A DNA stretch of 64,000 bases from an uncultured Pseudomonadales bacterium (lineage in GTDB: Bacteria > Patescibacteriota > Microgenomatia > UBA1400 > PJMF01), in NCBI GenBank assembly GCA_964406075.1, contig CAYOQI010000002.1:160565-224564 (forward strand), written 5' to 3'. Made by a program: the position numbers and the translations under genes. Within the stretch, counting starts at the first letter, position 1; the number at the start of each line of letters is the position of its first letter. The notes under the pieces were generated by a model. The model did not search any database and was not told the DNA's origin. It saw only the letters and a program-made list of their open reading frames with translations. Positions 5,699 to 41,608 of this stretch are shown here, piece by piece.

Positions 5699-5911
5699 AT
5701 GGGAATTATTATCAACATTGATGTTATGCTCGCCAAACGAAAAATGAGCGTCACCGAACTGACAGAAAAGGTCGGGATTACGATGGCAAATCTTTCCATC
5801 TTAAAAAATGGCAAAGCCAAAGCCGTTCGCTTCTCTACATTGGAAGCCATTTGCAAAGCGTTGGATTGTCAGCCCGGGGATATTCTCGAATATGAAGCCA
5901 ATAAAAAATAA
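5699..5911 (+). CDS. XRE-family helix-turn-helix transcriptional regulator (YozG-like)
   Basis: 70 aa. MSVTELTEKVGITMANLSILKNGKAKAVRFSTLEAICKALDCQPGDILEY is a typical Cro/C1 HTH of the YozG subfamily. Confidence 0.85.
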   Translation: MGIIINIDVMLAKRKMSVTELTEKVGITMANLSILKNGKAKAVRFSTLEAICKALDCQPGDILEYEANKK

Positions 5912-10484: not shown

Positions 10485-11747
10485 GTGGGAGATCGAGAAA
10501 AGCTCTTCTTTCGTGCCCTGTTCATCACAGGGGTCATCTGTATATTGTTGGGAGTATTTATTACTCTCAACGACCAATACCGGTTTGCTGCACTCGAAGA
10601 ACAGATAACTGCTTTAGAGCTGCAACAAGAAGACCTTAACGAATTGTTGGTGAGTGTGCAAATCGAGCTGGATGCACATCGTCGTGAGTATGCCTCGGTG
10701 CATACCGCTAGTCAATACAATCGTCTTAGTGAAATGCAGACATGGCTAACTGACAGTGGCCAATATAGCACCACAGTTCACGCAGCCCGGGCAGCACAGC
10801 AGGATTCTCGGAATGGTGATCCTTTTGTGTTTGCAGATCTAGCTCAAAACTGGGCCAATGACATCATTGGTTTTCACCAACTGATTCTCGGCGAGTCGAG
10901 TCCCGAACAGCCAAGCTTCTACGAAGCTTTAGGATCGGAAACAGCCCAAGCTCAATCCAGTCTTCGTTCTGCGCACCAAGAGCTGTTAACTCTCCAGACT
11001 TACCTCGGAGAAAAACGCCAAGATGTGTGGAACCGGGAACACGGAGTCGTCTTCAATATCGCAGCAGTTGAGATCCAGATGATCCAACAAGATCTGGACA
11101 GTGTTGATCGGTATTCGACTACCAAACTGGTAGACGATTATGTCGAGTACGATTGGGTTGGCGTGTATCGTCAAGCTCAAGCGGTGAGGACAAGCATTAC
11201 CAATGCTCGCGGTCTGATTGACCAAGAACATCAGCTCAGTCGGAACGCATTTCAGGAGCTAGCAGAAGCTGAGGTAAAAATCCTCAACGCCGATGACTAC
11301 ATCCTGAAGTCGAATTACCGACAGGCGCAAGCATTGGAGGCACTTCGAAATGTGCGTCTTACGTACAATCAGGCGCAAGCGTTTTTCTGGGGTCAACAAT
11401 CCGTACCAAATGGTCAAATTGCTCATCCTGACTATCAGCAAGCGTACAATTTAGCGGTACAGGCACAGTATGAGGCTGATGACGCGTGGTTGATCGCAGC
11501 CACACCAACACCAACTCCGCTTCCAACCGCTACACCAGTCCCTCCACCACCTGATGATGACGATGATGATAGCTTCTTTGGAGGTAGCTCATGCTGTTCA
11601 AGCAGCTATGGTGACTCTGGAGGAACAAGCTTCGGGAGCGATTACGGCTCTGGTGGCTCAAGCTGGAGCGATTCATCAGGAGGATTCAGTGGGAGTGATG
11701 GATTTGGTGGAGGCGATGACGGATTCAGCAGTAGTGATGGATTTTAA
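10485..11747 (+). CDS. Membrane-anchored coiled-coil protein with PT linker and Gly/Ser/Asp-rich C-terminal tail
   Basis: 420 aa. GTG start with AGGAGG 8 nt upstream. One N-terminal TM helix and a long helical region. The tail is ...PPPPDDDDDDSFFGGSS...GGFSGSDGFGGGDDGFSSSDGF. The gene is GC-rich relative to its surroundings. Confidence 0.7.
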   Translation: MGDREKLFFRALFITGVICILLGVFITLNDQYRFAALEEQITALELQQEDLNELLVSVQIELDAHRREYASVHTASQYNRLSEMQTWLTDSGQYSTTVHAARAAQQDSRNGDPFVFADLAQNWANDIIGFHQLILGESSPEQPSFYEALGSETAQAQSSLRSAHQELLTLQTYLGEKRQDVWNREHGVVFNIAAVEIQMIQQDLDSVDRYSTTKLVDDYVEYDWVGVYRQAQAVRTSITNARGLIDQEHQLSRNAFQELAEAEVKILNADDYILKSNYRQAQALEALRNVRLTYNQAQAFFWGQQSVPNGQIAHPDYQQAYNLAVQAQYEADDAWLIAATPTPTPLPTATPVPPPPDDDDDDSFFGGSSCCSSSYGDSGGTSFGSDYGSGGSSWSDSSGGFSGSDGFGGGDDGFSSSDGF

Positions 11748-11765
11748 AGAAAAGGAGCACATAAA

Positions 11766-12578
11766 ATGCACAGCAATGGTCCGCTTTTAGTAGTGATCGG
11801 GGTACTTTGCCTGATAGTGGCAGGGGTGTGGTATCTGTATCACAACCCTCACATTCTCGGCAACTGGGCTACCAACCTCCGTCGTACCCAACGCCATGTT
11901 GAAGACTTTCGTCAGGAAGTCAGGACTGAAGGTCTTCAAGAAGCTATTCAGCCTGAACCCACTCCACTCCAAGAAGAGATGGCGTTTGATCTGTCCGCTG
12001 CTCGTCTGAATGATGAGTTCCATTTTGACCTCAACGGGGATTACAGCCGTGTCAATGGAGTCAAGTTGGTCGTGCGTTTAACCGGAAATCTGATTGCCTT
12101 GATTCCTCCACAGGCACAAGGGGGAAGATATCAGGAAAAAGGTGAGGTTTATGAGGTTATCATTGCCGAAGATCTCGGCGGTGAGGATTATGTCTTAATC
12201 CAGCATAGTGCTGGGTTGATTGTCCTGACTCAAGATGAACCTCTAACAGACGGCCTCAAACAACAATTCAAAGAGGTCGGTCTAGCCTACTCACAAGCAG
12301 GTCAGACAGGAAACGCCCATAGCATTAACCACAAGGGTGTGACACTTACATTTATGGATGTAGGCTATCACCGCTTCGACAGTGAGGACGGGCGCTCTGA
12401 CATTCGTGGGCGCATGTATTTGCCGGAAGCAGATGGTCTGCCCGGCGTAGTCAAATTCGGGTTGTTCCAAGGTGATGATGGGTATCACTACTTCATCGAA
12501 CAACTTTCTCAGGCACAAAGCCTGTTGTGGCGTGGTCACGTGCTTAATGACCAAAACGGCTATATTTTCTCCGCATAA
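11766..12578 (+). CDS. Membrane-anchored protein, possibly DUF4178-like
   Basis: 270 aa with an N-terminal TM helix. The family guess rests only on operon context with a DUF350-like protein and weak pattern similarity. Confidence 0.6.
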   Translation: MHSNGPLLVVIGVLCLIVAGVWYLYHNPHILGNWATNLRRTQRHVEDFRQEVRTEGLQEAIQPEPTPLQEEMAFDLSAARLNDEFHFDLNGDYSRVNGVKLVVRLTGNLIALIPPQAQGGRYQEKGEVYEVIIAEDLGGEDYVLIQHSAGLIVLTQDEPLTDGLKQQFKEVGLAYSQAGQTGNAHSINHKGVTLTFMDVGYHRFDSEDGRSDIRGRMYLPEADGLPGVVKFGLFQGDDGYHYFIEQLSQAQSLLWRGHVLNDQNGYIFSA

Positions 12579-12607
12579 ACGTATAACTAAAGGAAGAAGG
12601 AAAGAAA

Positions 12608-13144
12608 ATGAACACACGCTCTATTAGTGGTGTAGTGAAAGTCGGGTTACTGGCATTGATCCTGTTTGGTGGCGGCCTAGTACTAGGTGGCAATGTAAAT
12701 GCTGAAGTCATTGGCGTAGTGATCGACAAGGTCTTCAAATTTGCAATCTATGCTATCTTGACCTTCATGTTATCGGCCTTCTTGATCAGTGTCTTTTTCG
12801 CTTTGGTGTTAAACACACCGAGACAGATGATAGGACACGTATTGAAGCAGGATAATAACGATAGTTGCGCAATCTTGTTGGTCAGCATCCTCCTGTCGGT
12901 GGTTTGCCTCGTTTTAGGATCAGGGGGTAACGATTTCTGGAGCTATGTTGGTGATCTGCTCCTCAATACAGCCCTTGCTCTCGCATTAAGCACAATCAGC
13001 ATCCCGATCATTCTGAAGATGGTCTTCGGTATAAAATCCCAGAACGATCTCATTGAATCAATTCGAGAACCGTTCAACAACAACGACGCGTGGTTGATTG
13101 CCGGCCTCATGTTAGCGTGCGCAGCGCTGACAGTGATTCTGTAA
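12608..13144 (+). CDS. Integral membrane protein with two DUF350-like repeats
   Basis: 178 aa. Two similar TM-pair halves each end in a polar ...N(N)D.A...(A/S)G motif. Confidence 0.6.
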   Translation: MNTRSISGVVKVGLLALILFGGGLVLGGNVNAEVIGVVIDKVFKFAIYAILTFMLSAFLISVFFALVLNTPRQMIGHVLKQDNNDSCAILLVSILLSVVCLVLGSGGNDFWSYVGDLLLNTALALALSTISIPIILKMVFGIKSQNDLIESIREPFNNNDAWLIAGLMLACAALTVIL

Positions 13145-14400: not shown

Positions 14401-14993
14401 AACGAGCCCGTCTTCACTTCACCAGCACGTTGAAAGTTTGCAAAGATGACCCCACTGGGAGAAACTTTTGACTCTGTTAATTTAAATGCGACCGGAATTG
14501 CTCCATCTTGAAACAACCGTTTTCCTTTTCCAAGCGTGATCGGGAAGATTTTTAGCCACAGCTCATCCACTAAGTCATTTTTTAATAAAGTTTGGATCAG
14601 ATTTGCTGAACCATGAACTTGGATATCAGGCCCTTTTTCATCTTTGATTTTTTTTAATTCGGCTGCAACATCACCCTTTATAAAAACTGAATTTTGCCAT
14701 TCGGATGATGAAAGAGTGTTTGACACGACATACTTAGTCGCTTCGTTCACACCTGGCCAGACATCCGCATGCTGTGGCCAATATGAAGCAAAAATGTCAA
14801 ATGTTTTTCTACCCAGAAGCAGACTAAAGGGTCCTTTCATCTGTTCACTCATAATGTTCCCTGCAAATTCATCGAAATACGGAACAGTCCACCCACCGTA
14901 TTTAAAATCACCGGAAGTATCTTCTTCAGGTCCACCAGGCGCCTGCATCACGCCATCAAGTGATATAAAAGAGAGGACAATTATTTTTCTCAT
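14397..14993 (-). CDS. Dihydrofolate reductase family protein (RibD C-terminal domain-like)
   Basis: [25 protein letters not shown]...GGW...[11 protein letters not shown]...[12 protein letters not shown]...[19 protein letters not shown]. Confidence 0.8.
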
Positions 14994-15084
14994 ATGCTTA
15001 GTTTAACATGCAGTTTGAGATGTGAATTTCCTTTAGGAATGAGTGTGCCCAACAAGTGTAGGAAAATAAGAGTATATTCTCAGT

Positions 15085-15357
15085 ATGACCACAAAAAAAC
15101 TCATTTCAGTAGAAGAAGCCAAACAAATCGGTGAACAACTCAGTATCACCTGGGATAAATTCGACGTTGATCAATATAAAATAGGTATGGAAGTAGAACT
15201 AGAACATGGAACTGCGAATCCACTTACAAATGTTACAAACGACGACTTGCTCACTACAGGGAAAATTGCCCTCGCACATCTCAATGAATTTCCTGATTAC
15301 TACACACGTTTGTTGAAAATGGAAAAAGAAGCCGAAAGTGAACCCACAGACAAATAA
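15085..15357 (+). CDS. Small conserved protein (DUF5661-like)
   Basis: 90 aa. GMEVELEHGT...ALAHLNEFPDYYTRL. Confidence 0.5.
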   Translation: MTTKKLISVEEAKQIGEQLSITWDKFDVDQYKIGMEVELEHGTANPLTNVTNDDLLTTGKIALAHLNEFPDYYTRLLKMEKEAESEPTDK

Positions 15358-15401
15358 CTTAAATCTGTAAAAATTCCTGAAAATGTAATGAAGAAATTAC
15401 A

Positions 15402-15818
15402 CTACTCGGATGAGCTGACAATCTCCCAAAGATGACCGTCGATGTCTTGAAAAAAACCTGAATAAACACCTCCACCACGATCATGAGCAGTATTTGCGAT
15501 TGTCGCACCGGCTGCCTGAGCTTTATTCATAATTAAATCTACTTCTGCTTTTGATTCAACTTGATGCATAAGCGTGAATTCCAAGGAACTTGATGATGTA
15601 AGAGCAAGATTTGTATCTTTAGCTAGGTTCTTTTTTGGATAGAGGGATAGTATTAATCCACCTTCTAACATAAATAATGCAATCCGCCCCTCATCATCAG
15701 GCTCATCACTGGTAGGCACAATTCCATCTGTTGGTAGTCCTAATCCATCACGGTAAAAAGATACTGACTTTTCTAAATCGTTAACTGAGAGTGTTATAGA
15801 AGTTATTTTAGGATTCAT
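15402..15818 (-). CDS. VOC/glyoxalase family protein
   Basis: 138 aa. ITLSVNDLEKSVSFYRDGLGL...GFFQDIDGHLWEIV. Confidence 0.8.
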   Translation of the reverse strand: MNPKITSITLSVNDLEKSVSFYRDGLGLPTDGIVPTSDEPDDEGRIALFMLEGGLILSLYPKKNLAKDTNLALTSSSSLEFTLMHQVESKAEVDLIMNKAQAAGATIANTAHDRGGGVYSGFFQDIDGHLWEIVSSSE

Positions 15819-15845
15819 AGTATTTGTTTTAATACTTATATAAGG

Positions 15846-16724
15846 CTAAGGGTTTAACGCAATTAAAGCTGCACCGACTAACATAATTAATCCAGCAAGG
15901 AAATGCTTCAGAAGACCTTTTTCTTTAAAAAATGTTCCTGACAAAACTATCGTTAATAAAATATTTAAAGAGACAATAACAGTAACAAAGGTTACCTTCC
16001 CTATACTAACAGCTTTCGTTCCAACAAATATGGAAAGCCCATAAAAAATCCCCATCATTAGGATTGACTTGCTACTGACAAGTATATCTTGCAACTTCCC
16101 TTTTCCTTTAGCTAAAAATAATAAGGTCAGTGGAATTGCTGTAATTGAAAAATAAACTGCAGCAAAAAATTGTGATGAAGAATATAGGATTGCCATTTTT
16201 TGAATAGGAACATTTATTCCAACTATCAAACCAAATAAGAGGATTAAAAGAACACCTTTTTCTTTCGTAAGCTTCATAAAAGGATAAAAAATATTTTTAC
16301 TAAGACTGAAGTCAAAATTAAGCACGTAAATGCCAAGTACAAAGAGTAACAACGCAATACCGTGAATAACGGTCAATTTCTCACCTAAAATAAAATATGC
16401 ACCAACTGCAGTAAATAAAATATTTAATGAAGTTACTGGAGTAATTAAGGAGAGTGGAGAGATTTTGACAGCCTTAAAATAGCATACAGTGCAAGCGATT
16501 TCTAAAGGCACCATGATAAATAACAATAGCCAGAATCTGCTATCTATAACCGGCAGGCCATTTTCCAACAAAGCAATCCAAAGTACTGGCAAAGCAAAAA
16601 TTGAACGGAGCCAAGCCACTGAATACTCATTGAGTTTGGCATTATTGCTTACCTGTTTTGTTGCTAAGTTAGCGATAGTAACAAAAACAGCAGCAAGAAG
16701 CGATAAAAAAAACCAACTAGTCAT
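15846..16724 (-). CDS. EamA/DMT-family transporter
   Basis: 292 aa, ~10 TM helices, duplicated EamA-like halves. Confidence 0.75.
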   Translation of the reverse strand: MTSWFFLSLLAAVFVTIANLATKQVSNNAKLNEYSVAWLRSIFALPVLWIALLENGLPVIDSRFWLLLFIMVPLEIACTVCYFKAVKISPLSLITPVTSLNILFTAVGAYFILGEKLTVIHGIALLLFVLGIYVLNFDFSLSKNIFYPFMKLTKEKGVLLILLFGLIVGINVPIQKMAILYSSSQFFAAVYFSITAIPLTLLFLAKGKGKLQDILVSSKSILMMGIFYGLSIFVGTKAVSIGKVTFVTVIVSLNILLTIVLSGTFFKEKGLLKHFLAGLIMLVGAALIALNP

Positions 16725-16811
16725 GAGACAATTGTACAGAAGGATGAAGAATTTTGTTCAAAGGGCTAAAGTTCGAACCTATGTAATGAATACTGCTCTA
16801 TAACACAAGTT

Positions 16812-17315
16812 TTATTCGCCAGCTTTTCGGATTGTTTCGAGATCAAGTTTTTTCATAGGCATAAATGCTGCAGTTACTGCCTCTGCCTTTTCGGGATTAC
16901 GCATTAGTTCGTCTAGGATTCTTGGTGTTACTTGCCACGTTACCCCAAATTTATCTGTGCACCATCCGCATTGCTCAGCTTCAGGAACAGCTGAAAGCTT
17001 TTCCCAGAAGTAATCAATTTCTTCTTGTGTTTCACACTCAATAATATATGAGGTTGATCCATTGAGCTTATATTGCTCCATAGGACCACCGTTCAGAAAC
17101 ATAAAGCTAATTCCATCAAGTTCGCATTCAGCTGTCAGAACGGATCCCTCAGGCATTGCAAACGGAGCATCCGCAGATGGCTTAGGTGTTTTTGTGATAT
17201 CTCCAAGTTTTGCGGTGTGTTCACCAGGAGCTGAATTGAATGTATCTATGTAGTAATTTGCTGCCTCGTCTCCGTTGTTGTTGACAAACCAGAGGCATGT
17301 AATTAATTTACTCAT
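16812..17315 (-). CDS. VOC-fold protein, 3-demethylubiquinone-9 3-methyltransferase-domain (PhnB-like) family
   Basis: ATG 17315 (MSKLITCLWF) with GAGGAG RBS. Motifs LWF...AANYYIDTF and KFGVTWQV. Confidence 0.7.
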   Translation of the reverse strand: MSKLITCLWFVNNNGDEAANYYIDTFNSAPGEHTAKLGDITKTPKPSADAPFAMPEGSVLTAECELDGISFMFLNGGPMEQYKLNGSTSYIIECETQEEIDYFWEKLSAVPEAEQCGWCTDKFGVTWQVTPRILDELMRNPEKAEAVTAAFMPMKKLDLETIRKAGE

Positions 17316-17358
17316 GTTATTTCTCCTCACATATTGTAAGAACTTTTCTTATATGTAT

Positions 17359-17787
17359 TTATTTCTCACTGGAAAATTCGATAATCCACTCAATACCGTA
17401 CTTATCTCGGAACATACCCGCATACGAACCCCACGGACTGTCTCCCATAGGACCTTCTACTTCTCCGCCCGCCGAAAGGCCAGTAAATAATCTCTCTGCC
17501 TCTTCTTTACTTTCCGTTCGTACTAAAATCTTGCTTCTATTTTCATGCTCATTTACTTTCCCCAGAACTTCCGGAACATCATTTGCTATCAACATCGCAC
17601 CTGTACCAATAGGTAAGGCGATATACATTATTTTATTTTCTTCTTTTTCTGGAATTGGGAATTCAGCACTCGCGATATCTTTGAAACGTACTACTTTCGT
17701 AAACTCTCCACCAAAAACTGATTTATAAAACGTAAATGCTTCTTCTGCATTACCGTTAAAGTTAATCCAAGTATTTATTGTTGTCAT
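17359..17787 (-). CDS. PhnB-like VOC family protein
   Basis: INTWINFNGNAEEAFTFYKSVFGGEF...DKYGIEWII. Confidence 0.75.
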   Translation of the reverse strand: MTTINTWINFNGNAEEAFTFYKSVFGGEFTKVVRFKDIASAEFPIPEKEENKIMYIALPIGTGAMLIANDVPEVLGKVNEHENRSKILVRTESKEEAERLFTGLSAGGEVEGPMGDSPWGSYAGMFRDKYGIEWIIEFSSEK

Positions 17788-17817
17788 ACGTATTCCCTAC
17801 TAAAATTAGTTAGACGT

Positions 17818-18009
17818 TTAGAAAGCTTTTGTCGCGCCGTTTTCTAGTGCTTTTTCAGCATTGTCTTTAGACATCATTGCACAAACAGTTGTTCCGCACT
17901 TCTCGTGCTTTCCTTTTGCCATGAAACCACCTTTTTTAGTTTGGTGAATCTCTGGTGCTGACAATTCAACACCTTTTTCTTTACATTTAACGCAATATCC
18001 TGTAACCAT
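17818..18009 (-). CDS. Small Cys-containing protein (DUF5679-like)
   Basis: 63 aa. GYCVKCKEK...HEKCGTTVC. Confidence 0.5.
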   Translation of the reverse strand: MVTGYCVKCKEKGVELSAPEIHQTKKGGFMAKGKHEKCGTTVCAMMSKDNAEKALENGATKAF

Positions 18010-18153
18010 ATCTATCTCCCTTTAAATATATCTGGTTACATTCTACCCCATTTTAGAGGGCACATCGCATTCGTTGGAAGATTGAGAGTAAACCACGAAA
18101 TTCTACGCCTGGAAGATATAAAAATGGCCTAGTTATACATACCATTTTTACAT

Positions 18154-18172
18154 GCTCCCCGCCATCGAAAAA
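18154..18172 (-). repeat. tRNA-Asn 3'-end-like repeat A
   Basis: Minus strand reads TTTTTCGATGGCGGGGAGC. It is intergenic and in the same orientation as tRNA-Asn. Confidence 0.6.
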
Positions 18173-18185
18173 GTCAGGAACGCTT

Positions 18186-18395
18186 TTACTTAATAAGAGT
18201 CTTTTTGTACGGTTTTCCTTTTAAGTCGTAGGTAGTCCATTCACCAACTTGCTTACCATCTTTAAAATTACCTGAACGTAACTTAGTACCATCTTTTCTA
18301 AACCATTCCCAATAACCAACTTGAACATCATTTTCCATCTCACCTGTAGCCCAAACACTGCCATCTTTGTGAAGCTTTTTATACTTTTTTCTCAT
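18186..18395 (-). CDS. MORN-repeat protein (YwqK-like)
   Basis: 69 aa. DG..W..GE..ND...G.WEWF..DG......F.DGK..GEW repeats. Confidence 0.65.
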   Translation of the reverse strand: MRKKYKKLHKDGSVWATGEMENDVQVGYWEWFRKDGTKLRSGNFKDGKQVGEWTTYDLKGKPYKKTLIK

Positions 18396-18547
18396 TCAGA
18401 AATTATATCAGTTGCGTGGGCATCATCGCATATATAACTTTGTATAAGCTTTCTAGTACTGATAAAATGCAGGATAAATATAATTCAAACGTATTTTGTT
18501 TCGCTTGATGGACAGTGTTAGAACCTATTTTAGGAATTCTGATGATT

Positions 18548-18826
18548 CTACTTTTTCTTTCCAGTTAAGATGAGAGTATTTGATTCGTCACTATGAACTC
18601 CACCACTATTTACATTTTTATCACCTATATTTGGTCCATTCTTGATAACATGCACTAATGCCATTCCATGTCCTCGACCTAACCCATACTCATCTTTTAA
18701 CCAAAAAAGTATTTCCCCAGCCTTTGTGTTTTTGTCGAAACCTTTTGCTTTTGCTTCATCAATAAACTGTTGTGGTGTTTTCCCAGTTTTTTCCTCAATG
18801 TTATCTAAATATGCTTGAAATGACAT
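18548..18826 (-). CDS. DUF4287 domain protein
   Basis: MSFQAYLDNIEEKTGKTPQQFIDEAKAKGF...WLKDEYGLGRGHGMALVHVIKNG. Confidence 0.7.
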   Translation of the reverse strand: MSFQAYLDNIEEKTGKTPQQFIDEAKAKGFDKNTKAGEILFWLKDEYGLGRGHGMALVHVIKNGPNIGDKNVNSGGVHSDESNTLILTGKKK

Positions 18827-18900
18827 TATGTTTAATTATATCTAAAAAAGGTTCTAACGTCCAAATAGGGTTAATGGAAAATTGAGGCTAAAAATATGCT

Positions 18901-18918
18901 GCTCCCCGTCAATGAAAT
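18901..18918 (-). repeat. tRNA-Asn 3'-end-like repeat B
   Basis: Minus strand reads ATTTCATTGACGGGGAGC. Intergenic. Confidence 0.6.
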
Positions 18919-19125
18919 GTGGGGATTATAGCGGAAAAACAATAAAATTAAAACTATAGGATCTAACAACTACACCTACTTTAAAGTCCTACATGTTAAA
19001 GAGTTCTGAACATCATAGATTCCGGGTTCCGTGTAGGACTTGTAACAAGCGAGACCTAAGAAACAGGGCCATGTCAACATCTCTCAATGTCTCACGGCCC
19101 TGATATAAGAAGCATCTAAGATGCA

Positions 19126-19431
19126 TCAATGATTGAGGTAACTAACCCGCTCATGTTGCTCCAAAAGCCTCTGGTAGTGAGTGTTATCACCTTCAGTGCG
19201 TTGAGGGCATTCATCATAAAAAGGGTCATACCACGTATTAGTCTTGCTCTGACGATAGCTATGTGCGCTATCAGCTAGTTCTTTGCCGGCTTGTAGACCA
19301 CAGTGGAGTACAAACTCGGTCCTCGTGATCAGGAACCATTTATCTCGTTCCTGTGCCAATGACTCAAGGGCTTGTTGCTGCTCTGTACTCAACCCTAGAG
19401 ATCTAAGATCGAACGGGAAAATATCACTCAT
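19126..19431 (-). CDS. Hypothetical protein
   Basis: 101-aa ORF followed by a hairpin (CAGGGCC...GGCCCTG, then T-run on the minus strand). No recognisable family. Confidence 0.5.
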   Translation of the reverse strand: MSDIFPFDLRSLGLSTEQQQALESLAQERDKWFLITRTEFVLHCGLQAGKELADSAHSYRQSKTNTWYDPFYDECPQRTEGDNTHYQRLLEQHERVSYLNH

Positions 19432-19782
19432 CGACTAACACTCCTTTGAGATACTTTTAAATACGAATGTGCTCTAGAACAAGAAGTAGTAAGTGCAATT
19501 GATACACCTCTGATAATTTCTAGGCCTATAATTATATCATCGGACTTACTCTTGTCTACCTCAGGAAATGACCTAGTAATTCTGTAAACAAAAATGAATC
19601 ATTCTAAAAAAAACAGAAACTATGTATAGCTTTCTTGTTGTCACTATTCTGTAGACGAGATGCTCATAGATTTTAATGAATGGTGCTATGAAAAAAAAGA
19701 TGGAAGGTGAATGGATATACAGTAAAAAAGAAGGATATCTCTTGGCAATTTAGTCAAGAAGTTGAACAAGTCTTTAAACAGA

Positions 19783-20388
19783 CTATTTATCCCATTTTAA
19801 CTGCTCTCTATCCCTAGCTGATTGAGTTTTGTTATCTGTGTTACTAACAATATCTTTATGCATTAAGAGCGATAATGTCCCATTTAATCCAATATAAGGT
19901 TGCAGATCAATGCCTCCTTGAATATCATTTTTGAAAACTGATACTCCATAAGTAATTTTCAATCCTTCTGATGCTAACCCAGGGACAGCGTGTAAATATT
20001 CATGTTCTAGCATTTCTTCAATTTTCTGGTCTACCCAAGAATCAGGCACAACAGCACCAGTTTCATTAATGGCTTTTTCAAACGCCATTCTTAGCAAAAT
20101 AGGGTATAAATGCGAGTCAGTTACTTCAATTTTATTATCATCATAACTAGCTGAGGCATCCAAAAAAATATCTTCAGGATTAACTTCATCACGAATTTTT
20201 TGTATTATTTCAGCTGTAAATGCTTTAGCCTCGTCTAGATCAACTTTGGGTGCAATTGAACCATCAGACTGAAACTCAACTTTTGACTCTGATAATATTT
20301 CTTTATGGTCAAAGGCAAAATCAGTTCTGTCCGCAAGTTCCTTTTTTTGTTCTTCTAATTGGCTTTGAACGGAATTTTCTTGCATCAT
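19783..20388 (-). CDS. Hypothetical protein with an HExxH motif
   Basis: 201 aa with an acidic N-terminal half. EEMLEHEYLHAVPG contains HEYLH. Confidence 0.55.
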   Translation of the reverse strand: MMQENSVQSQLEEQKKELADRTDFAFDHKEILSESKVEFQSDGSIAPKVDLDEAKAFTAEIIQKIRDEVNPEDIFLDASASYDDNKIEVTDSHLYPILLRMAFEKAINETGAVVPDSWVDQKIEEMLEHEYLHAVPGLASEGLKITYGVSVFKNDIQGGIDLQPYIGLNGTLSLLMHKDIVSNTDNKTQSARDREQLKWDK

Positions 20389-20458
20389 TTAAGTATATTA
20401 CTTAAGACGAGAAGAAGCATGGAGTTTATCCCTGCTGTTTAGGCGAATATATACTGAA

Positions 20459-20487
20459 GCTCCCCGTCCATCAGCTTACTCGAACAA
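20459..20487 (-). repeat. tRNA-Asn 3'-end-like repeat C
   Basis: Minus strand reads TTGTTCGAGTAAGCTGATGGACGGGGAGC, 27/29 identical to repeat D. Confidence 0.75.
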
Positions 20488-20731
20488 CAATAACACAAGT
20501 ATTCATCTAAATTGAATTCAATTTCTGATATTCTAGTCCCTATAATTTTTCTCTAGGTCTTTTTAATGGTATAATCTCCTCTGGAAAATTCCTTTTGCCA
20601 GGCGGTTTTTACGACTGTTTTTTTAGCAAAAGATGTTTTTCAGTTCGTTAACATGTGAAGAGAAAGGAAGACAAGACACAGAATAGTTCAAATTCGTTCT
20701 TAATCTAAGAAAGTCTACAAGGAGACAAGAA

Positions 20732-22837
20732 GTGAATAGCAAGTTGAAAGTGGGAATAATCAGGATAGCACTTCTGATCGTTTTAGTAGTGTTATCACAG
20801 GGAACTGTTTTTGCTCAGGGCTGTAGTGTCCAAATGTCAATGGATCCTACGCCACCATTCACGCTGGGTACTCATGTCCAGCTTCATGTTTGGGGCAATT
20901 GTGGGACAGTCCGGTTTGAAATTAACGGGCAACCACGTGCTGAGATTGGTACTACCGAACAACGAGAAACCTGGAAAACGGAAGAATTTGGTTCTGGGAA
21001 TTTTGAAGTGTGCGGAGTTGGACGCGGAAGCGGCGGTTGGGAAAACGCCAGCCGCTCTTGCCGAACTGTATACGTAGCTGGTAGTCAAGCTCAACCTCCT
21101 GGGAGTAATCCCGGGAGTAACGTAAGGTGCTGGGTAAACAGTTTTACTGTAACACCTGGTAGTGCAAATATCGGTCATACTTTCCAGTTCGCCGGCTCAG
21201 GCCAGTGCGACGGGAATGCCAGGGCTGCACGGTTCTACATCGGTGGTAATCCATGGGGAGAGTATGGTGGAAACACAACCTCATCTTCGTGGAATACCAG
21301 TGGACAGAGTGCCGGTACATACGAAATCTGTTTCGGCATCACCGGTGGAGAGTGGTCACAAGAAGCGAGGAGTTGTACAAACATCACCCTCAGCTCATCG
21401 GGAGGACCATCGAACAATACCTCGCAGGGTCCACAGACAAACAATAATCAGCCTGGACAAACAAACCAAAGTGGGCCGGGGAATCAAAACAACCCTCCAG
21501 TACAGAATAACCAACCTCCGAACCAGAACAATAATGCAGATAATGGTGGATCTAGCGGGAATTCAGGTGGATCAAGTGGTGGTTCTGGTGGAGGGAATAG
21601 TTCAAACAATGGAGGGGACACCGGGTACGGCACGAACAGCAGTGATCCGACGTTCAGTCAACCTTGTGTTTCATCCAGACTTCGGGTTGGAGATATCGCT
21701 ATCGTCAACCCCAGGAACGAGTATGTGAGACTCCGTTCCAGTGCGCGTGTGGATGCCTCCACATTAACTACCATCCCTTCAAGAAGCCAGATTACCCTAA
21801 TCGGTGGGCCTGTCTGCAGTCACGCCTGGCAATGGTATGAAACCCAATACAATGGTTTCACCGGATGGGTAGCTGAGATTGGTCCTGACGGGGACAGTCA
21901 ACGCAACCTGCTCAGGAATGGAGAAGCACTTCCGGGTAGCAGTGGTTCATCTGGTTCAGGTAGTTCTTCAGGAAGTGGCGGAAATTCAAACACCACTACT
22001 TGCAATGGAGCAGTCCAAGTTTCTCTCACGGTCGGTGGACGAGGACGGGTTACACCTGGTGATCCCAATCGTCTGCGGTCAGGAGTGGGAACAGGTCAGT
22101 CCCAGATAGATACTATTCCTGGCAACGGTGAGTTCCAAGTCGTTGGCGGTCCTCGCTGTGCTGACGGTTACCAGTGGTGGCAAGTAGAATACAACGGTCA
22201 GACCGGCTGGACTGTAGCTGGCGGAAATGGTCAAGCCTGGGTGGTTTCGCTGGGTGGGGGAAACAACAACCAACCCCAGCCAACACCAGTTCTACAGGGA
22301 AACCAGGTAGAAACTATCCAATTCTACTATGCACCTTGGGGAAGAACCTATCAGCTCGAGGTCACACGAACCAACCATTGTGTGGTACGGAATGGTTCTA
22401 CAATTATCGCTCGAGAAATTGAGCGAGTTGGGATCATTCTCGATTCAATGAATCTCGCACAGCGGGTGAACTTTATGATTGAGTATTTCTCACTCAACAC
22501 TGGAGGTATTGAGCAATTTAGGCTGCGTATCCAGCGCCAGCTTGGCTGTTCTAATTTCTCTTACCAAGTCGGAGAGAGAAACATGGACGAATCAGGGTTG
22601 GGAAATATTATCTACGGATATGCGCTTGAAAGATGGTCAGATGTGGTTGAGTCTGTTATTGCACGTCTTTTTCAAGGTAGACGAGACAAAAGTCTGCATC
22701 CACTCATCCTCGGTGACAATCCAGACGATGTTTCTCAACGATCACTGGGAGCGACTATAGCTCGACTAACTAACCAATCGGCGAGTCCTTCTACCAGTAC
22801 AGTTGAACAGGCTGCTGTATCAGTAGGACTCTTCTAA
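20732..22837 (+). CDS. Secreted multidomain protein: 2 Ig-like repeats, Gly/Ser/Asn-rich linkers, 2 SH3b-like domains, unknown C-terminal ~190-aa domain
   Basis: 701 aa. GTG start with AAGGAG RBS and a signal peptide. The SH3b-like pair ends ...WYETQYNGFTGWVAE and ...WWQVEYNGQTGWTVA. The C-terminal domain contains GLGNIIYGYALE. The gene is strongly GC-rich (36/60 GC at 21001..21060). Confidence 0.8.
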   Translation: MNSKLKVGIIRIALLIVLVVLSQGTVFAQGCSVQMSMDPTPPFTLGTHVQLHVWGNCGTVRFEINGQPRAEIGTTEQRETWKTEEFGSGNFEVCGVGRGSGGWENASRSCRTVYVAGSQAQPPGSNPGSNVRCWVNSFTVTPGSANIGHTFQFAGSGQCDGNARAARFYIGGNPWGEYGGNTTSSSWNTSGQSAGTYEICFGITGGEWSQEARSCTNITLSSSGGPSNNTSQGPQTNNNQPGQTNQSGPGNQNNPPVQNNQPPNQNNNADNGGSSGNSGGSSGGSGGGNSSNNGGDTGYGTNSSDPTFSQPCVSSRLRVGDIAIVNPRNEYVRLRSSARVDASTLTTIPSRSQITLIGGPVCSHAWQWYETQYNGFTGWVAEIGPDGDSQRNLLRNGEALPGSSGSSGSGSSSGSGGNSNTTTCNGAVQVSLTVGGRGRVTPGDPNRLRSGVGTGQSQIDTIPGNGEFQVVGGPRCADGYQWWQVEYNGQTGWTVAGGNGQAWVVSLGGGNNNQPQPTPVLQGNQVETIQFYYAPWGRTYQLEVTRTNHCVVRNGSTIIAREIERVGIILDSMNLAQRVNFMIEYFSLNTGGIEQFRLRIQRQLGCSNFSYQVGERNMDESGLGNIIYGYALERWSDVVESVIARLFQGRRDKSLHPLILGDNPDDVSQRSLGATIARLTNQSASPSTSTVEQAAVSVGLF

Positions 22838-22857
22838 ATCTCTTCACAATAAACACC

Positions 22858-22886
22858 ACCTGTGCCAGGAAAATCCTGGCACAGGT
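22858..22886. terminator. Bidirectional hairpin terminator between convergent genes
   Basis: ACCTGTGCCAGG-AAAAT-CCTGGCACAGGT, a 12-bp perfect stem. Confidence 0.65.
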
Positions 22887-22887
22887 T

Positions 22888-23244
22888 TCACAAATAAATA
22901 TACAAAATTGTTGAAATAAGAACCGTACATACAATAATCAGAAATGATAGAGCAAATCCCGATACAATATTGACAAAAAATGTTTGCAGTTTGTTTTTTG
23001 TTTTATTTTGAGGAAGGAACACAAGCAAAGAAAAGACAAAACTTAACGCTCCAGTTAGACCCATCCAATGAAAGCTGAGAAGAATTGAAGTAAACATCAG
23101 TGTATTAGATAGAGTAGAAGTTCCACCACTTCCTGGGCTGTCATGAAATTGCATCCAAGTGATTAAACAGAGGAAAATAAACGACGTGATGGTTACGGAC
23201 ACAAGTGCATATGGGATTGTTTTAAAAAAGTTTAGTATTTTCAT
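22888..23244 (-). CDS. 4-TM membrane protein
   Basis: 118 aa. Its topology resembles that of the adjacent 129-aa protein. Confidence 0.55.
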   Translation of the reverse strand: MKILNFFKTIPYALVSVTITSFIFLCLITWMQFHDSPGSGGTSTLSNTLMFTSILLSFHWMGLTGALSFVFSLLVFLPQNKTKNKLQTFFVNIVSGFALSFLIIVCTVLISTILYIYL

Positions 23245-23262
23245 ACGCAGATTTTGTTTTTT

Positions 23263-23652
23263 TTAAAAAAGATTTGAAAAAAAGAAAATGAGTGCTAATC
23301 CTAAACAAAAAATGATGAAAGAAATAAAAGGAGTTAAAACAGTATTAATCGCAATCTTCTTTAATACTTTTCCTAAAGATTTTCTTTCAGTCAGCCCATA
23401 AAAGATCAGGCTCAAAACAAAAGAAGTAACTGTTGCAGCGATAAAAAGGAAACTTCCGAAAGCTAGAGCTAACTGAATCCCAAACCAATAATCACTTGAA
23501 GTGTAATGAGCATCAAAACCACTTCTTACCTCTGTCCTTCCATATATCCAAGGAGAGAGTATCAAAGGAAGAATAAACCACAGGAAAAAAGAGATGAAAG
23601 AAAACGGAGCTAGTTTGGGTAGGTACAAAAGATACTTTTTTAATCTTTTCAC
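23263..23652 (-). CDS. 4-TM membrane protein
   Basis: 129 aa with a GTG start. Confidence 0.55.
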   Translation of the reverse strand: MKRLKKYLLYLPKLAPFSFISFFLWFILPLILSPWIYGRTEVRSGFDAHYTSSDYWFGIQLALAFGSFLFIAATVTSFVLSLIFYGLTERKSLGKVLKKIAINTVLTPFISFIIFCLGLALIFFFSNLF

Positions 23653-23709
23653 AAATGTATTGTATCGTATCGAAGATAGAAGTTCAGCAATTAATTACTA
23701 TAGGTCTTT

Positions 23710-23738
23710 GCTCCCCGTTCATCAACTTACTCGAACAA
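23710..23738 (-). repeat. tRNA-Asn 3'-end-like repeat D
   Basis: Minus strand reads TTGTTCGAGTAAGTTGATGAACGGGGAGC. An adjacent 7-bp inverted repeat is GAACAAA-TTCT-TTTGTTC. Confidence 0.75.
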
Positions 23739-23973
23739 ATTCTTTTGTTCATTTTTTCTAATCCGAACGATGATTTAGCTTGTATAAATGTGTAGTGAAA
23801 ATGAAGCTAGCATGAACTATCTGCTCATTTCGAAATGTTCTCTAATCAAGTCTACTGACTACGTCAATAACATGGAGGTAGCACTGTTAAGCTAACTAAT
23901 ATACAAGAAAGAGTTCACGATTGTTCTCTGGCTATATTGATGATTTTTTCTAGTATAGAATTAATTCTGCACT

Positions 23974-25653
23974 ATGCGCTCCATTAGAAAAATATATTTC
24001 AGTTTTGCTGTTGGTTTGCTTTTTTTTGTCTTTTTTGTAGTATCTAGACAGCCAATTGATGCTGATGGTACTCTGGTGAGCTGGTGGAAATTAGATGAGA
24101 CGACACAAGGTGCTACTGCTGTCGACTCAGTTGGTACAAATAATGGAACTGGGGTAGGAACAGGTGGCGGTCCTAATCCGTCAACAGATGTACCTACGGT
24201 AAGTTTTTCTAATCCTAGATCAGCGAGTTTCAATGGTTCAGATCAATATTTTAATTGTGGAAATTCTCCATCAAATTTACCCACAGGTTCACAAGCGAGA
24301 ACAATTTCAGCATGGATAAAAGGAAACACATATACCGGCGGTTCTGGGAGAACAGTCGCAGGTTGGGGCACTGATTCCTCTGGACAGCTGAGCGAGTTGC
24401 GCGTCAACTCTTCAGGAAAAATTGAGTTTCATGGGAATAGTAATGACATCCCAGGGGCAACAACCCTTTCAACAGGACAATGGTATTTTGTTGCGACAAC
24501 AGTTTCGAGCAGTGGCGCAGTCAAGTTATATGTCAACGGGACAGAAGATGGTACCGGAAATGTGACACTCAATACGACAGCTGCAAACTGTAAAATTGGA
24601 CGTCAACCAGATTTTAATGGGCAGTACTTTAACGGCTTCATTGATGAGGTTCGTATTTATAATGGTGATTTATCACCTACTCAGATTACAAATCTAGCAA
24701 ATGGAAACTCGAGCCCTGATCCCACTCCGACGCCTACACCAACTCCCACACCTACCCCGACTCCAACACCCACCCTTACACCTACTCCAACTTCTGTCCC
24801 CTCAATCAGTAGCTCTGGTTCGTCATCTACATCAAATTCGAACTCCACTGAATGTAGCGATGAAGCACCTACATCAGTACCGGATCTTTTTCAGATTAGT
24901 ACTTCACTTACATCCGCAACGTTGTACTTTTCACCTGTAGGGTCGAGTACTGCTTATATCATCCATTACGGCACGTCACTTTCCGCGGATCAGTATGCAG
25001 TAAGTTTTGATCAAAGTACTTCAGGTGGTGTGGTGTCATATACGGTTCAGTCTCTTGCCTCAAACACCAGATATTATTTCAAGGTGCAAGCAAAGCGTGG
25101 TTGCAAAACTGGCACTTGGTCCAATACCAGAGATGAGAAAACGACGAGTCTCGTACCGGAAAATGGTGTTCCTACAACTTCATCAAAGCCATTAAAGATT
25201 CAGGTTGAAGAACCAGTGAAAACCGATACAACACAAGAACCTGCATCGCAAACAACAGAAACACCTATTTCAGACTCAGATGAAGTCGGTGGGTATGAAC
25301 TCTCTATTGCCGTAAAAAATGATGACAAACCAATAGAAGGTGCTGTTGTCGAGTTGCACTCAGTACCTCGTCAAACCACTACAGATAAAGATGGTATAGC
25401 CCGTTTTAGTAATGTCGAAAAAGGTGAGCATACCGTAAAAATTGCCTATGCTGACTATAACGGTGAAGAAAAAGTGACAATTGATGGAGACCAAAAAGAT
25501 CTTTCGATTAACATTACTATTGAAATGGAATCAACGTCAAAATCGCCCAATATATCAGGAATTACAATAGGGGCTGGTGGGGTACTTCTATTCTTGTTTC
25601 TCCTGTTTATTTTCAAAAGAAAAAAATCAAAGAAAGAAAAAATTCGAGTGTAA
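23974..25653 (+). CDS. Surface protein: LamG-like lectin domain, PT linker, FN3-like domain, CarboxypepD_reg-like domain, C-terminal TM anchor
   Basis: 559 aa. LVSWWKLDE...ASFNGSDQYF...ISAWIK...GQWYFVA...FIDEVRIYN fits LamG_3. The C-terminus is ...SPNISGITIGAGGVLLFLFLLFIFKRKKSKKEKIRV. Confidence 0.8.
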   Translation: MRSIRKIYFSFAVGLLFFVFFVVSRQPIDADGTLVSWWKLDETTQGATAVDSVGTNNGTGVGTGGGPNPSTDVPTVSFSNPRSASFNGSDQYFNCGNSPSNLPTGSQARTISAWIKGNTYTGGSGRTVAGWGTDSSGQLSELRVNSSGKIEFHGNSNDIPGATTLSTGQWYFVATTVSSSGAVKLYVNGTEDGTGNVTLNTTAANCKIGRQPDFNGQYFNGFIDEVRIYNGDLSPTQITNLANGNSSPDPTPTPTPTPTPTPTPTPTLTPTPTSVPSISSSGSSSTSNSNSTECSDEAPTSVPDLFQISTSLTSATLYFSPVGSSTAYIIHYGTSLSADQYAVSFDQSTSGGVVSYTVQSLASNTRYYFKVQAKRGCKTGTWSNTRDEKTTSLVPENGVPTTSSKPLKIQVEEPVKTDTTQEPASQTTETPISDSDEVGGYELSIAVKNDDKPIEGAVVELHSVPRQTTTDKDGIARFSNVEKGEHTVKIAYADYNGEEKVTIDGDQKDLSINITIEMESTSKSPNISGITIGAGGVLLFLFLLFIFKRKKSKKEKIRV

Positions 25654-25656
25654 TTT

Positions 25657-25680
25657 GCTCCCCGACCAGTCCACTTGAAG
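25657..25680 (-). repeat. tRNA-Asn 3'-end duplicate E
   Basis: Minus strand reads CTTCAAGTGGACTGGTCGGGGAGC. CTGGTCGGGGAGC (13 nt) is identical to the tRNA-Asn 3' end 95 nt away. Confidence 0.8.
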
Positions 25681-25743
25681 GGATACCCGCTTTACTCCTA
25701 AACTCTTCACTACGTGCCAGCCCAATTCATTGAAACCTACAAG

Positions 25744-25767
25744 AAAACCACGCATCAACGTGGTTTT
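25744..25767. terminator. Bidirectional hairpin terminator
   Basis: AAAACCACG-CATCAA-CGTGGTTTT, with A/T runs on both sides. It lies between the LamG gene and tRNA-Asn. Confidence 0.6.
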
Positions 25768-25775
25768 CTTATGAG

Positions 25776-25847
25776 CTCCCCGACCAGGATTCGAACCTGG
25801 AACCTTGAAGTTAACAGCTTCCTGCTCTGCCGTTGAGCTATCGGGGA
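25776..25847 (-). tRNA. tRNA-Asn (anticodon GTT)
   Basis: Hand-folded cloverleaf: TCCCCGA/TCGGGGA acceptor, GCTC/GAGC D stem, anticodon loop CTGTTAA, T arm CCAGG-TTCGAAT-CCTGG, discriminator G. CCA is not encoded. Confidence 0.9.
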
Positions 25848-32531: not shown

Positions 32532-32632
32532 GCGGACGTTGTCCCGCCGAAGCCGAGCTTCAGCGAGGCGAAGCTCTCCTTCGCAAGCTCTAGCGGACTG
32601 CGTCCGCCGTAGCTCGCTTCGGCGAGCGAAGG
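32532..32632 (-). repeat. GC-rich multi-hairpin module abutting the tRNA-Ser 3' end (long form)
   Basis: In tRNA orientation the hairpins are GCTCGC-CGAA-GCGAGC, GGCGGAC-GCA-GTCCGC, GCGAAG-GAGAG-CTTCGC and GAAGC-TCG-GCTTC, followed by GGCGGGAC-AAC-GTCCGC. 32562..32636 is identical to 35913..35987. Confidence 0.9.
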
Positions 32633-32717
32633 CGGAGGGAGAGAGATTCGAACTCTCGGTAGCTTGCGCCACGGCGGTTTAGTAAACCGCTGCACTAGAC
32701 CACTATGCGATCCCTCC
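32633..32717 (-). tRNA. tRNA-Ser-like class II tRNA with apparent anticodon ACT
   Basis: GGAGGGA-TC-GCA-TAGTGGTCTAG-TGC-A-GCGGT-TTACTAA-ACCGC-CGTGGCGCAAGCTACC-GAGAG-TTCGAAT-CTCTC-TCCCTCC-G. The architecture matches the two other tRNA-Ser genes. Loop TTACTAA puts ACT at positions 34-36. Confidence 0.75.
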
Positions 32718-35912: not shown

Positions 35913-35983
35913 AGCGAGGCGAAGCTCTCCTTCGCAAGCTCTAGCGGACTGCGTCCGCCGTAGCTCGCTTCGGCGAGCGAAGG
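35913..35983 (-). repeat. GC-rich multi-hairpin module abutting the tRNA-Ser(GCT) 3' end
   Basis: 75/75 identity (35913..35987) with 32562..32636, although the two tRNA bodies differ. Confidence 0.9.
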
Positions 35984-41565: not shown

Positions 41566-41608
41566 GGCGGACTTTGTCCGCCGAAGCCGAGCTTCAGCGA
41601 GGCGAAGG
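41566..41608 (-). repeat. GC-rich hairpin module abutting the tRNA-Ser(TGA) 3' end (short form)
   Basis: 41578..41607 is identical to 32544..32573 (30 nt). It equals the long form minus 58 bp between gcgaag repeats and includes hairpin GGCGGAC-AAA-GTCCGCC. Confidence 0.85.

Follow-up and report, generated by a model that had tools for sequence, protein, structure and literature searches.

The 3' end of a tRNA-Asn gene as a probable attachment site of large serine recombinase elements, with putative P-type junction scars bounding integrase-less islets in a Patescibacteria genome

The subject of this study is a stretch of 64,000 nucleotides from an uncultured bacterium (deposited as a Pseudomonadales bacterium; GTDB lineage Patescibacteriota, Microgenomatia, UBA1400, PJMF01; GenBank assembly GCA_964406075.1, contig CAYOQI010000002.1, positions 160,565 to 224,564), hereafter the window, and within it a tRNA-Asn gene whose last eight nucleotides recur at five places (copies A to E) on the 3' side of the gene. 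We consider it probable that the tRNA-Asn 3' end is the left half of an attB site used by elements encoding a large serine recombinase (LSR), and that copies A to E are scars of the P-type junctions of such elements, bounding islets without an integrase. The tRNA-Asn 3' end would thus be the chromosomal attachment site of Patescibacteria-wide, LSR-encoding integrative elements. Each scar, a P arm with the centre CGGG-GA-GC common to all, would mark the distal junction of one in a series of insertions, and the scars would divide the DNA downstream of the tRNA into islets resembling cis-mobilizable elements (CIMEs) that carry surface, secreted and orphan genes.

The tRNA-Asn(gtt) gene (25775..25847, minus strand; ARAGORN) is intronless, does not encode CCA and lies 1.4 kb from the RpoD gene, whose product assigns the window to the Microgenomates group of the Patescibacteria. 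Its 3' end, the core CGGGGAGC, is present six times in the 64 kb, at positions 18154, 18901, 20459, 23710, 25657 and 25775 (a span of 7.7 kb) and every time on the minus strand, against an expectation of 0.43; six copies were reached in none of 100 dinucleotide-preserving shuffles, and the 7-mer GGGGAGC retrieves the identical six sites. The five extra cores all lie between genes. Copies C and D agree at 27 of 29 positions, with no further site in the window at three mismatches or fewer, and copy E equals the tRNA-Asn end at 13 of 13 bases. As a control, the remaining four tRNA genes of the window were inspected and none has a same-strand copy of its own last 8-12 nt. What the copies and the tRNA-Asn have in common is just the 8 nt and a T-loop-like 8-mer, and in C and D the spacing between the core and the T-loop-like block is 5 nt wider than in the tRNA, so these two are not simply decayed tRNA ends. 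No recombinase was found in the window, neither by Pfam on all open reading frames (ORFs) of 150 amino acids (aa) or more, nor by a hidden Markov model (HMM) of the recombinase family described below, run against the six-frame translation. An earlier reading of the window, made from its letters alone (the sequence-only reading), had listed the tRNA-Asn 3' end together with five related intergenic copies in the same orientation, had estimated that the 8-mer should occur well under once by chance, had counted the matches of E with the tRNA and of C with D, and had seen no integrase; its coordinates and sequences all agree with ours, its counts were reproduced, and the 64 kb hold no copy elsewhere.

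Comparison with relatives, drawn from contigs of public read-set assemblies with RpoD 85-89% identical, points to insertion or deletion at the core. In contigs L080 and L081/L082/L083, RpoD and five right-flank proteins are 100% identical, so these contigs represent one species; their flank DNA is 94-99% identical. A segment of L081 (12051-12850, ~800 bp with one ORF of 185 aa) is missing from L080, and the common sequence restarts exactly at CGGGGAGC. The end of this unit (junction j2) reads GTTCGAGTAAGCTCATGGACGGGGAGC and is identical to window copy C at 26 of 27 positions. A second L081/L083 unit of 782 bp, again with one ORF, ends in GTTCGAGTAAAATCATGGACAGGGAGC (junction j3); the units of L083 are ~800 bp long, hold one ORF each in the same orientation, and their ORFs are unrelated. 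Further on, L081 12922-14870 and L080 11427-15492 do not align and carry unrelated ORFs. To the right of the array, 99% identity resumes within a gene of which L083 has a truncated version, which makes that boundary the work of an ordinary deletion. When the window is compared with L080, synteny is limited to tRNA-Asn at one end and DUF2200/DUF1801/OmdA at the other, and nothing between them aligns; the orthologous region is therefore hypervariable between relatives, and not invariant as would be expected if no integration had taken place at the tRNA. The presence and absence of a unit at the core was seen in L080 versus L081/L083.

The arm GTTCGAGT-N11-core is common to window copies C and D, junctions j2 and j3 of L083, and a further contig, L085, and thus occurs across genera. 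L085 was the one further element returned by a metagenome scan for the junction element, and viral scans for the C/D element gave 0 matches. A scan of one representative genome per species with Bcp yielded at best 67% identity or less, no tRNA-Asn synteny and no extra junction elements. Two other candidates were set aside: a 1.5-kb contig ending in a tRNA T-arm (L001), the sole exact match of window proteins, was dropped as too weak, and a T-arm-like match in L083 at 5813 lies in a coding region and was taken as chance. In L085, a 7.4-kb metagenome contig without a tRNA, the intact P arm and core (5702-5728, minus strand) are flanked by a gene of 334 aa and by two paralogues of 288 and 289 aa that are 72% identical; the P arm with its core thus also exists away from tRNA-Asn.

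All junctions were aligned on the core and motif offsets were then scanned, which revealed a regular geometry. The tRNA arm consists of GTTCGART, a gap of 6 nt and the core (8/8 sites, zero mismatches); the arm at the cassette end consists of GTTCGAGT, a gap of 11 nt and the core (5/5: window C and D, L083 j2 and j3, L085); the arm on the recombinase side consists of the core, a gap of 12 nt and AYTCGAAC (4/4). The cassette-end arm (P) mirrors the recombinase-side arm (P') at 15-18 of 23 positions, against a mean of 11 for random 22-mers compared with the arm mirror, which never exceeded 17 in 5000 trials. The inner parts of the arms are palindromic about GA (ATGGACGGG before GA, ATGGATGGC before TC). 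With half-sites of 23 (P), 22 (P'), 18 (B) and 17 nt (B'), attP would measure ~47 bp and attB ~37 bp. The outer motif is separated from the core by 11/12 nt in P and P' and by 6/7 nt in B and B', so that in the host-type arms it stands 5 bp nearer the core; if GA is taken as central, the positions of GTTCGAGT are 16-23 for C and D compared with 11-18 for the tRNA. In the Listeria integrase, the motif bound by the zinc ribbon domain is likewise 5 bp nearer the centre in attB than in attP (bp 16-24 becoming 11-19; PMC3783163), and attB is ~10 bp shorter than attP (Rutherford et al., PMC3783163). The offsets of the putative arms match this published rule on serine integrase half-sites. Every site contains GA, located on the dyad axis, and the identity between sites spans 8 nt, beyond what the serine integrase model requires. 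Single-strand folding of the junctions gave z scores of +0.46, +1.39, +0.19 and +1.24, i.e. no better than shuffles for four of the five; the z score of D is -2.32, but its helices lie in the flanks, and the five junctions have no common structure.

Candidates for the enzyme come from other Patescibacteria. In contig L086, the tRNA-Asn is followed directly, on the opposite strand, by a gene for a 503-aa protein (Resolvase and Recombinase, Pfam) and an HTH_17 gene. The protein matches the catalytic domain of TP901-1 (E 4e-18) and, over residues 184-468, the C-terminal region of the A118 integrase (4KIS; E 4e-6), and on its domains and these matches it can be assigned to the LSRs; Zn_ribbon_recom (PF13408) is annotated in many homologues. 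The recombinase gene runs antisense, with its stop codon within the tRNA 3' end, in four contexts (L086, L089-L093, L094 and L095). In L089-L093 the tRNA-Asn is split by a group I intron and lies 6.5 kb downstream of RpoD, and the element also encodes Prim-Pol/AAA_25; in L094 a tRNA-Gln takes the place of tRNA-Asn, with the core variant CCGGGAGC. The family counts 1484 matches at E <= 1e-20, and the named matches are Patescibacteria lineages. A widespread LSR family appears to target tRNA 3' ends. The sequence-only reading had proposed site-specific integration at the tRNA-Asn 3' end that left att repeats. The occupied and empty site at the core, the C/D junction element in other genera and the integrase-bearing elements at the same tRNA end speak for that proposal; the repeats themselves turned out not to be displaced tRNA ends, in that their P-type arms derive from the element, and the serial addition of units is something that we infer.

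The neighbourhood of the recombinase is conserved as well, with the HTH_17 gene (62-74 aa) and a divergent 291-293-aa gene without a Pfam match (L089 15-3528, L086 7715-8862, L095 357-1472), and in L089 the Prim-Pol/AAA_25 replication protein. This gene content suggests small plasmid-like integrative elements and not prophages. Viral contigs contained no relatives of the recombinase in single-sequence and alignment searches. The HTH_17 protein, encoded next to the integrase, is a candidate directionality factor. Two leads did not hold: Logan contigs ending just past the recombinase gene were considered as circle junctions and are really breaks at the boundary of the tRNA group I intron, and L096, the lone viral match to the centre of the predicted attP, falls within coding sequence of a GC-rich phage and has no arms (~0.7 such matches expected, a rough estimate).

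Because the recombinase ORF crosses the site, the tail of the protein reports the sequence beyond the core. Among 120 family proteins, 41 stop right after WLPx and 30 continue as xxDSN, which is the tRNA T-loop read antisense, giving 71 tails antisense to a tRNA. Read in the recombinase frame, the tRNA of the window gives LPDQDSNLEP, comparable to tails such as GLPDEDSNLEP. In contrast with these 71, tails of the form LPxxxx[ITFLV]R[TN], with the spacing of a P arm, are found in 14 of the 120, for example P0146 (ending in WLPVHLLTRT) and P0216 (GLPVHELIRN). The reverse complements of the junctions translate in the same manner: LPVHQLTRT for window C/D, LPVHELTRT and LPVHDFTRT for j2 and j3 of L083, and LPVHDLTRT for L085. 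Judged by these tails, some family members have the recombinase gene, its P' arm, the core and an arm of the C/D type in one unbroken row, and in the P0146 and P0216 genes GTTCGAGTAAG-N3-ATGNACGGGGAGCCA should directly follow the P' arm.

Taken together, the LSR family seen in relatives would, apparently, have made the junctions of the window. GA would be the crossover dinucleotide; the units would have been added one by one beside the tRNA, with A the oldest; and the recombinase would have been supplied in trans or lost since. Several points weigh against this account. The recombinase is present neither in the window nor in the L080/L083 arrays, which leaves site similarity as the only tie between the enzyme and the window. 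No whole element with both ends was found: in L094 a distal site was not detected within 10 kb, and L089 and L095 run into contig ends. Nor was a relative found close enough for unit-by-unit presence and absence of the four window units. Among the right flanks only that of E has a significant half-site motif; for D, C, B, A and L083 j2 the motif matches are no better than the null. The P-spaced tails could reflect internal tandem junctions rather than free circles with a free attP. Copies A and B hold a perfect 8-nt core although their outer arm is gone or decayed, which is not uniform neutral decay. Finally, canonical serine integrases join only attP with attB (PMC3783163) unless a directionality factor is present; insertion beside an occupied tRNA is therefore unexpected and would need attP x attL or another route, and under this rule the tandem growth of the array has no explanation.

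Several routes of growth are nevertheless conceivable. An integrated element may be excised as a composite with a more distal junction, transferred and then partly excised; a loss of 5 bp may turn a P' arm into a B' arm and so regenerate attB; the enzyme may be less strict; or homologous recombination may exchange whole arrays among strains. The form expected from the second route is seen in the right arm of copy E: the core, a gap of 7 nt and ACTCGAAT with one mismatch (null P ~0.025), a host-type (B') half-site that equals the P' arm of L086 with 5 nt of linker removed. The final codons of the neighbouring LamG gene, ATT CGA GTG TAA, overlap this arm. The left arm of E is P-like and 3 nt short (gap 8). 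At L083 j3, the right flank shows AGTCTT and the outer motif, with two mismatches, at P' spacing.

We weighed four other explanations. In the first, the locus is an integron-like platform, in which integrase-less cassettes, each with a P-core-P' site, are mobile, a serine recombinase acts in trans and the tRNA-Asn end is the recipient. The L083 units fit such a platform, being ~800 bp long with one ORF, in the same orientation and with conserved 5' (hairpin and promoter-like) and 3' (P arm) modules, and so do the attP-like internal junction j3 of L083, the arrays without recombinases and the L085 element away from the tRNA. Neither a circular cassette nor a trans-acting enzyme was observed, however; the units of the window hold one to three genes in mixed orientations, an ordinary deletion in a gene forms the right-hand limit of the L083 array, the decay of larger elements covers much of the pattern, and an occupied site is not a target for canonical serine integrases. 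We regard this platform as unlikely. The related and bolder proposal, that the locus is a serine-recombinase counterpart of the integron, where single-gene cassettes with a 47-bp attP-like site would be captured and released at the tRNA-Asn end by a trans-acting LSR, is in our estimation rather doubtful too. If it were true, genome-reduced Patescibacteria would possess a dedicated, strain-variable platform for capturing genes of surface and orphan proteins.

Alternatively, the array might have been built by tyrosine integrases, with the 8-bp core as overlap region, islands accreting into the restored core and the LSRs as unrelated users of the same hotspot. Both the choice of target and the mode of growth would be familiar, since tRNA 3' ends are typical targets of tyrosine integrases (PMC4383910, PMC5704250) and serial insertion into a restored core is well documented (PMC7192596). 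Moreover, two viral contigs (L074 and L076) lack a full tRNA but contain an exact match to the last 23 nt of tRNA-Asn, beside ORFs that look like tyrosine recombinases on motif inspection only. These contigs are, however, GC-rich and unrelated, and a tyrosine recombinase was seen neither in the window nor in any of the Patescibacteria loci examined. The mirrored arms, the exact 5-bp offset and the WLPVH.LTRT read-through tails are not predicted by this explanation, which we consider distinctly improbable.

The sequence-only reading had offered a promoter as its own alternative: the motif would fill the -35 hexamer and spacer of promoters of minus-strand genes, and the likeness to the tRNA would be coincidental. 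A minus-strand gene does follow 58-145 nt after A, B, C and D, and D can be read as TTGATG-17-TATAGT (9/12) upstream of a gene, and C, by eye, as CTGATG-17-TATATT. In a consensus scan C fails and only D passes, and the region holds 14 promoter-like matches against a shuffle expectation of 18 (sd 4.2). The gene after B has a better promoter of its own, E faces the convergent end of the LamG gene, and what comes after the junction in L080 and L083 is, judged by eye, a terminator-like hairpin and T-run and not a gene. As a generic promoter element the motif should recur upstream of genes elsewhere; the remaining 56 kb of the window lack it and, outside the tRNA, it was not found in ~21 kb of L080 or 20.6 kb of L079 (related DNA), being confined to the tRNA-Asn array. 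A promoter would also leave the insertion or deletion at the core and the link to a recombinase unexplained, and we find it very unlikely. That the copies are chance or the remnants of tandem tRNA-Asn duplicates, with no mobile element involved, is hardly credible: E does match the tRNA at 13/13 bases and part of a tRNA 3' half precedes the tRNA in L081/L083, but 0/100 shuffles reach six copies, C and D have a gap of 11 and not 6 nt and are otherwise not tRNA-like, and the same 27-mer marks unit boundaries in other genera.

Among described systems, tandem island arrays and CIMEs (ICESt1/CIME of Streptococcus thermophilus; Islander/TIGER) are the closest. There, too, direct repeats of the att core stand at the boundaries, one of them in a target gene whose function is kept (PMC5704250, PMC7192596), units without integration genes keep their att sites, content varies between strains and deletions reshape the array. 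The described cases, however, involve tyrosine recombinases, and their islands usually carry their own integrase and measure kilobases to tens of kilobases, whereas the window array is LSR-linked, has units of 0.1-3.2 kb (~0.8 kb in L083) with an integrase in none, and resides in a Patescibacteria host. With the att sites of LSRs (Listeria A118/LI, phiC31, Bxb1, TP901-1) the system has in common the enzyme domains with an A118-like C-terminus, quasi-palindromic sites of ~47 and ~37 bp, the 5-bp shift and a small HTH gene beside the integrase. It departs from them in its apparent target, which is no protein-coding gene but a tRNA gene whose 3' end is used and left intact; in that the integrase ORF extends across P' and the crossover as far as the partner arm, so that its last residues vary with the state of the element; and in its tandem P-type junctions, which lie outside canonical attP x attB recombination. 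Integron arrays and clusters of attC sites lacking integron integrases (CALINs) likewise consist of short units with mostly orphan genes, separated by a conserved recombination site, can lack an integrase and vary between strains. In contrast, neither an IntI-type tyrosine recombinase nor an attI is seen in the window and the related arrays, a duplex-type arm of 27 nt takes the place of a folded attC, the anchor is a tRNA gene, and the orientation of genes in the window is mixed. The filamentous phage phiRSM reportedly integrates at a tRNA-Ser gene by means of a small resolvase-like serine recombinase. It therefore resembles our case in pairing a serine-family recombinase with a tRNA gene 3' end as attB, and differs in that the enzyme is small, without the recombinase, zinc-ribbon and coiled-coil region, and that tandem integrase-less arrays have not been described for it.

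Tandem island arrays at tRNA genes are well known; what sets this one apart is that it is apparently linked to serine integrases, an enzyme class rarely linked to tRNA targets, that it is miniature and that it occurs in Patescibacteria. We found no paper on such a serine-integrase-linked array in the literature. Given that the integrase frame spans the crossover site, the state of an element can be read from the last residues of the protein. The natural scars would also display the 5-bp attP/attB rule, which has so far been worked out on few phage enzymes, and the predicted att sites of a new clade (47-bp attP, 37-bp attB) could be useful in genome engineering and possibly for the genetics of Patescibacteria, which are now without tools. 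The array would constitute a reservoir of genes for surface, secreted and orphan proteins, hypervariable and free of integrases, next to a core cluster (RpoD, DnaG), and a plausible route to fast turnover of host-interaction genes in very small genomes. Additionally, the tandem P-type junctions raise a mechanistic question on the directionality of serine integrases.

The coordinates of the copies and of the units between them are collected in Table 1. Position weight matrix (PWM) scores of C and D stand far above the shuffle maximum of 13.9.

Table 1. Putative attachment half-sites, junction copies and intervening units on the 3' side of the tRNA-Asn gene (positions in the window).
Feature	Coordinates	Strand	Sequence or content	Basis
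Host-type (B) half-site, last 22 nt of tRNA-Asn	25796..25775	-	GTTCGAATCCTGGTCGGGGAGC	motif GTTCGAAT, gap 6 nt, core
Mini-unit, tRNA to E	25665..25774	-	110 bp, no ORF	sequence
Copy E	25642..25680	-	CTTCAAGT-GGACTGGT-CGGGGAGC-AAATTAC-ACTCGAAT	sequence, offset scan
Unit E to D	unit 23718..25656; gene 23974..25653	+	LamG/fn3/CarboxypepD_reg surface protein, 559 aa; GC 0.408	Laminin_G_3, Pfam
Copy D	23710..23738	-	GTTCGAGT-AAGTTGATGAA-CGGGGAGC; intact element-type (P) arm and core, gap 11	PWM 47.8
Unit D to C	20467..23709		129-aa ORF (23263..23652, -); 118-aa ORF (22888..23244, -); SH3_3, 701 aa (20732..22837, +)	
Copy C	20459..20487	-	GTTCGAGT-AAGCTGATGGA-CGGGGAGC; intact P arm and core, gap 11	PWM 50.4
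Unit C to B	18909..20458		201-aa ORF (19783..20388, -); 101-aa ORF (19126..19431, -)	no Pfam match in either
Copy B	18901..18918	-	core and decayed inner P arm (TCATTGA vs TCATGGA), outer motif lost	sequence
Unit B to A	18162..18900		DUF4287 (18548..18826, -); 69-aa MORN-like ORF (18186..18395, -)	
Copy A, farthest from tRNA	18154..18181	-	GTTCCTGA-CTTTTTCGATGG-CGGGGAGC; core and decayed P arm	outer motif 5/8, gap 12
Accessory genes past A	14401..18153		DUF5679, VOC, 3-dmu-9_3-mt, EamA, glyoxalase, RibD_C	Pfam

The mini-unit next to the tRNA contains a hairpin and T-run, aaaaccacg-ttgatg-cgtggtttt (~25744..25767; judged by eye and not flagged by the terminator scan), and is read as the stump of a deleted insertion. 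The C-terminus of the LamG protein, a hydrophobic stretch with a basic tail, is read as a membrane anchor. In the unit from D to C, the 129-aa and 118-aa ORFs have no Pfam matches and a GC content (GC) of 0.33 each, and were labelled membrane proteins by the sequence-only reading only; the gene of the 701-aa SH3_3 protein has a GC of 0.50. The 201-aa ORF contains the string EHEYLH, an HExxH pattern, without a Pfam or PADLOC match, and its product may be a zinc metallopeptidase-like protein. The DUF4287 gene has its own promoter-like site, TGGACG-17-TATAAT, at 18863..18835. Most of the gene calls made earlier for these blocks stood (LamG, the GC-rich SH3 protein, the orphans and DUF4287); the MORN call fell below threshold, at 18.4 bits against a Pfam cut-off of 29.6. 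The gap-12 alignment of copy A was made by eye, and the automated scan ranked another match best. Across the units GC is uneven, 0.337-0.445 compared with ~0.39-0.40 in the flanks, and a PADLOC search of the cassette proteins found no match to a defence family. The PWM scan detected no att scar in the accessory region past A, and the genes there have no nucleotide counterpart in L080.

The two neighbouring cassettes of L083 share a 56-nt module (3530-3585 and 4261-4316, 93% identical) that begins with the end of a hairpin and its T-run, continues as AT-rich, promoter-like DNA and is followed by identical first codons, ATGCAAGAAA. The first unit of L080 has just its first 70 nt in common with the L083 cassettes, and the units of L083 and L080 appear to be mosaics. 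About 10 nt upstream of the 5' end of the L083 tRNA-Asn lies an extra partial tRNA 3' half, GTTCCAGGTTCGAGTCCTAGTCGGAGAGC (3071-3099, corresponding to L081 11705-11733), and in front of it stands GTCGAACCGTT, similar to the 3' coding end of the recombinase read antisense, TCGAACCGTTAA; the partial copy may mark an old junction at the opposite flank of the tRNA. In L080 (11199-11290), the tRNA-Asn 5' end GATCCCCGA has a second copy ~80 nt upstream of the actual gene, and the two are separated by unrelated sequence. The Bcp gene lies between RpoD and the tRNA in the window and in L081-L083, and not in L080.

The bases behind the tRNA end differ among the loci. In the window (25772-25782, GAGCtca) and in L083 (3409-3420, GAGCatc) CCA is not encoded, whereas GAGCCA is encoded by the tRNA-Asn of L080, L084, L086, L089 and L095 and by the tRNA-Gln of L094; the bases behind GAGC seem to derive from the latest insertion. 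Group I introns (Rfam RF00028; 92.8 and 84.6 bits) occupy the anticodon loop of tRNA-Asn in L083 (3141-3369), L089 (5068-5371) and L091 (2698-3001), and ARAGORN misses the genes that they split; no intron interrupts tRNA-Asn in the window, L080 or L086. The breaks of Logan contigs L090, L092 and L093 at the intron boundary suggest that the presence of the intron is polymorphic within populations.

Elsewhere in the window, at 10485-13144 (plus strand), three consecutive ORFs of 420, 270 and 178 aa without a Pfam match have a GC of 0.46-0.49 compared with ~0.39 for the genome, and because this composition is like that of the GC-rich SH3 protein (20732-22837) they may be another foreign block. 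Finally, ARAGORN reports a tRNA-Ser with the unusual anticodon ACT at 32631-32717 (minus strand), which together with tRNA-Ser(GCT) at 35982 and tRNA-Ser(TGA) at 41607 makes three tRNA-Ser genes in 9 kb.

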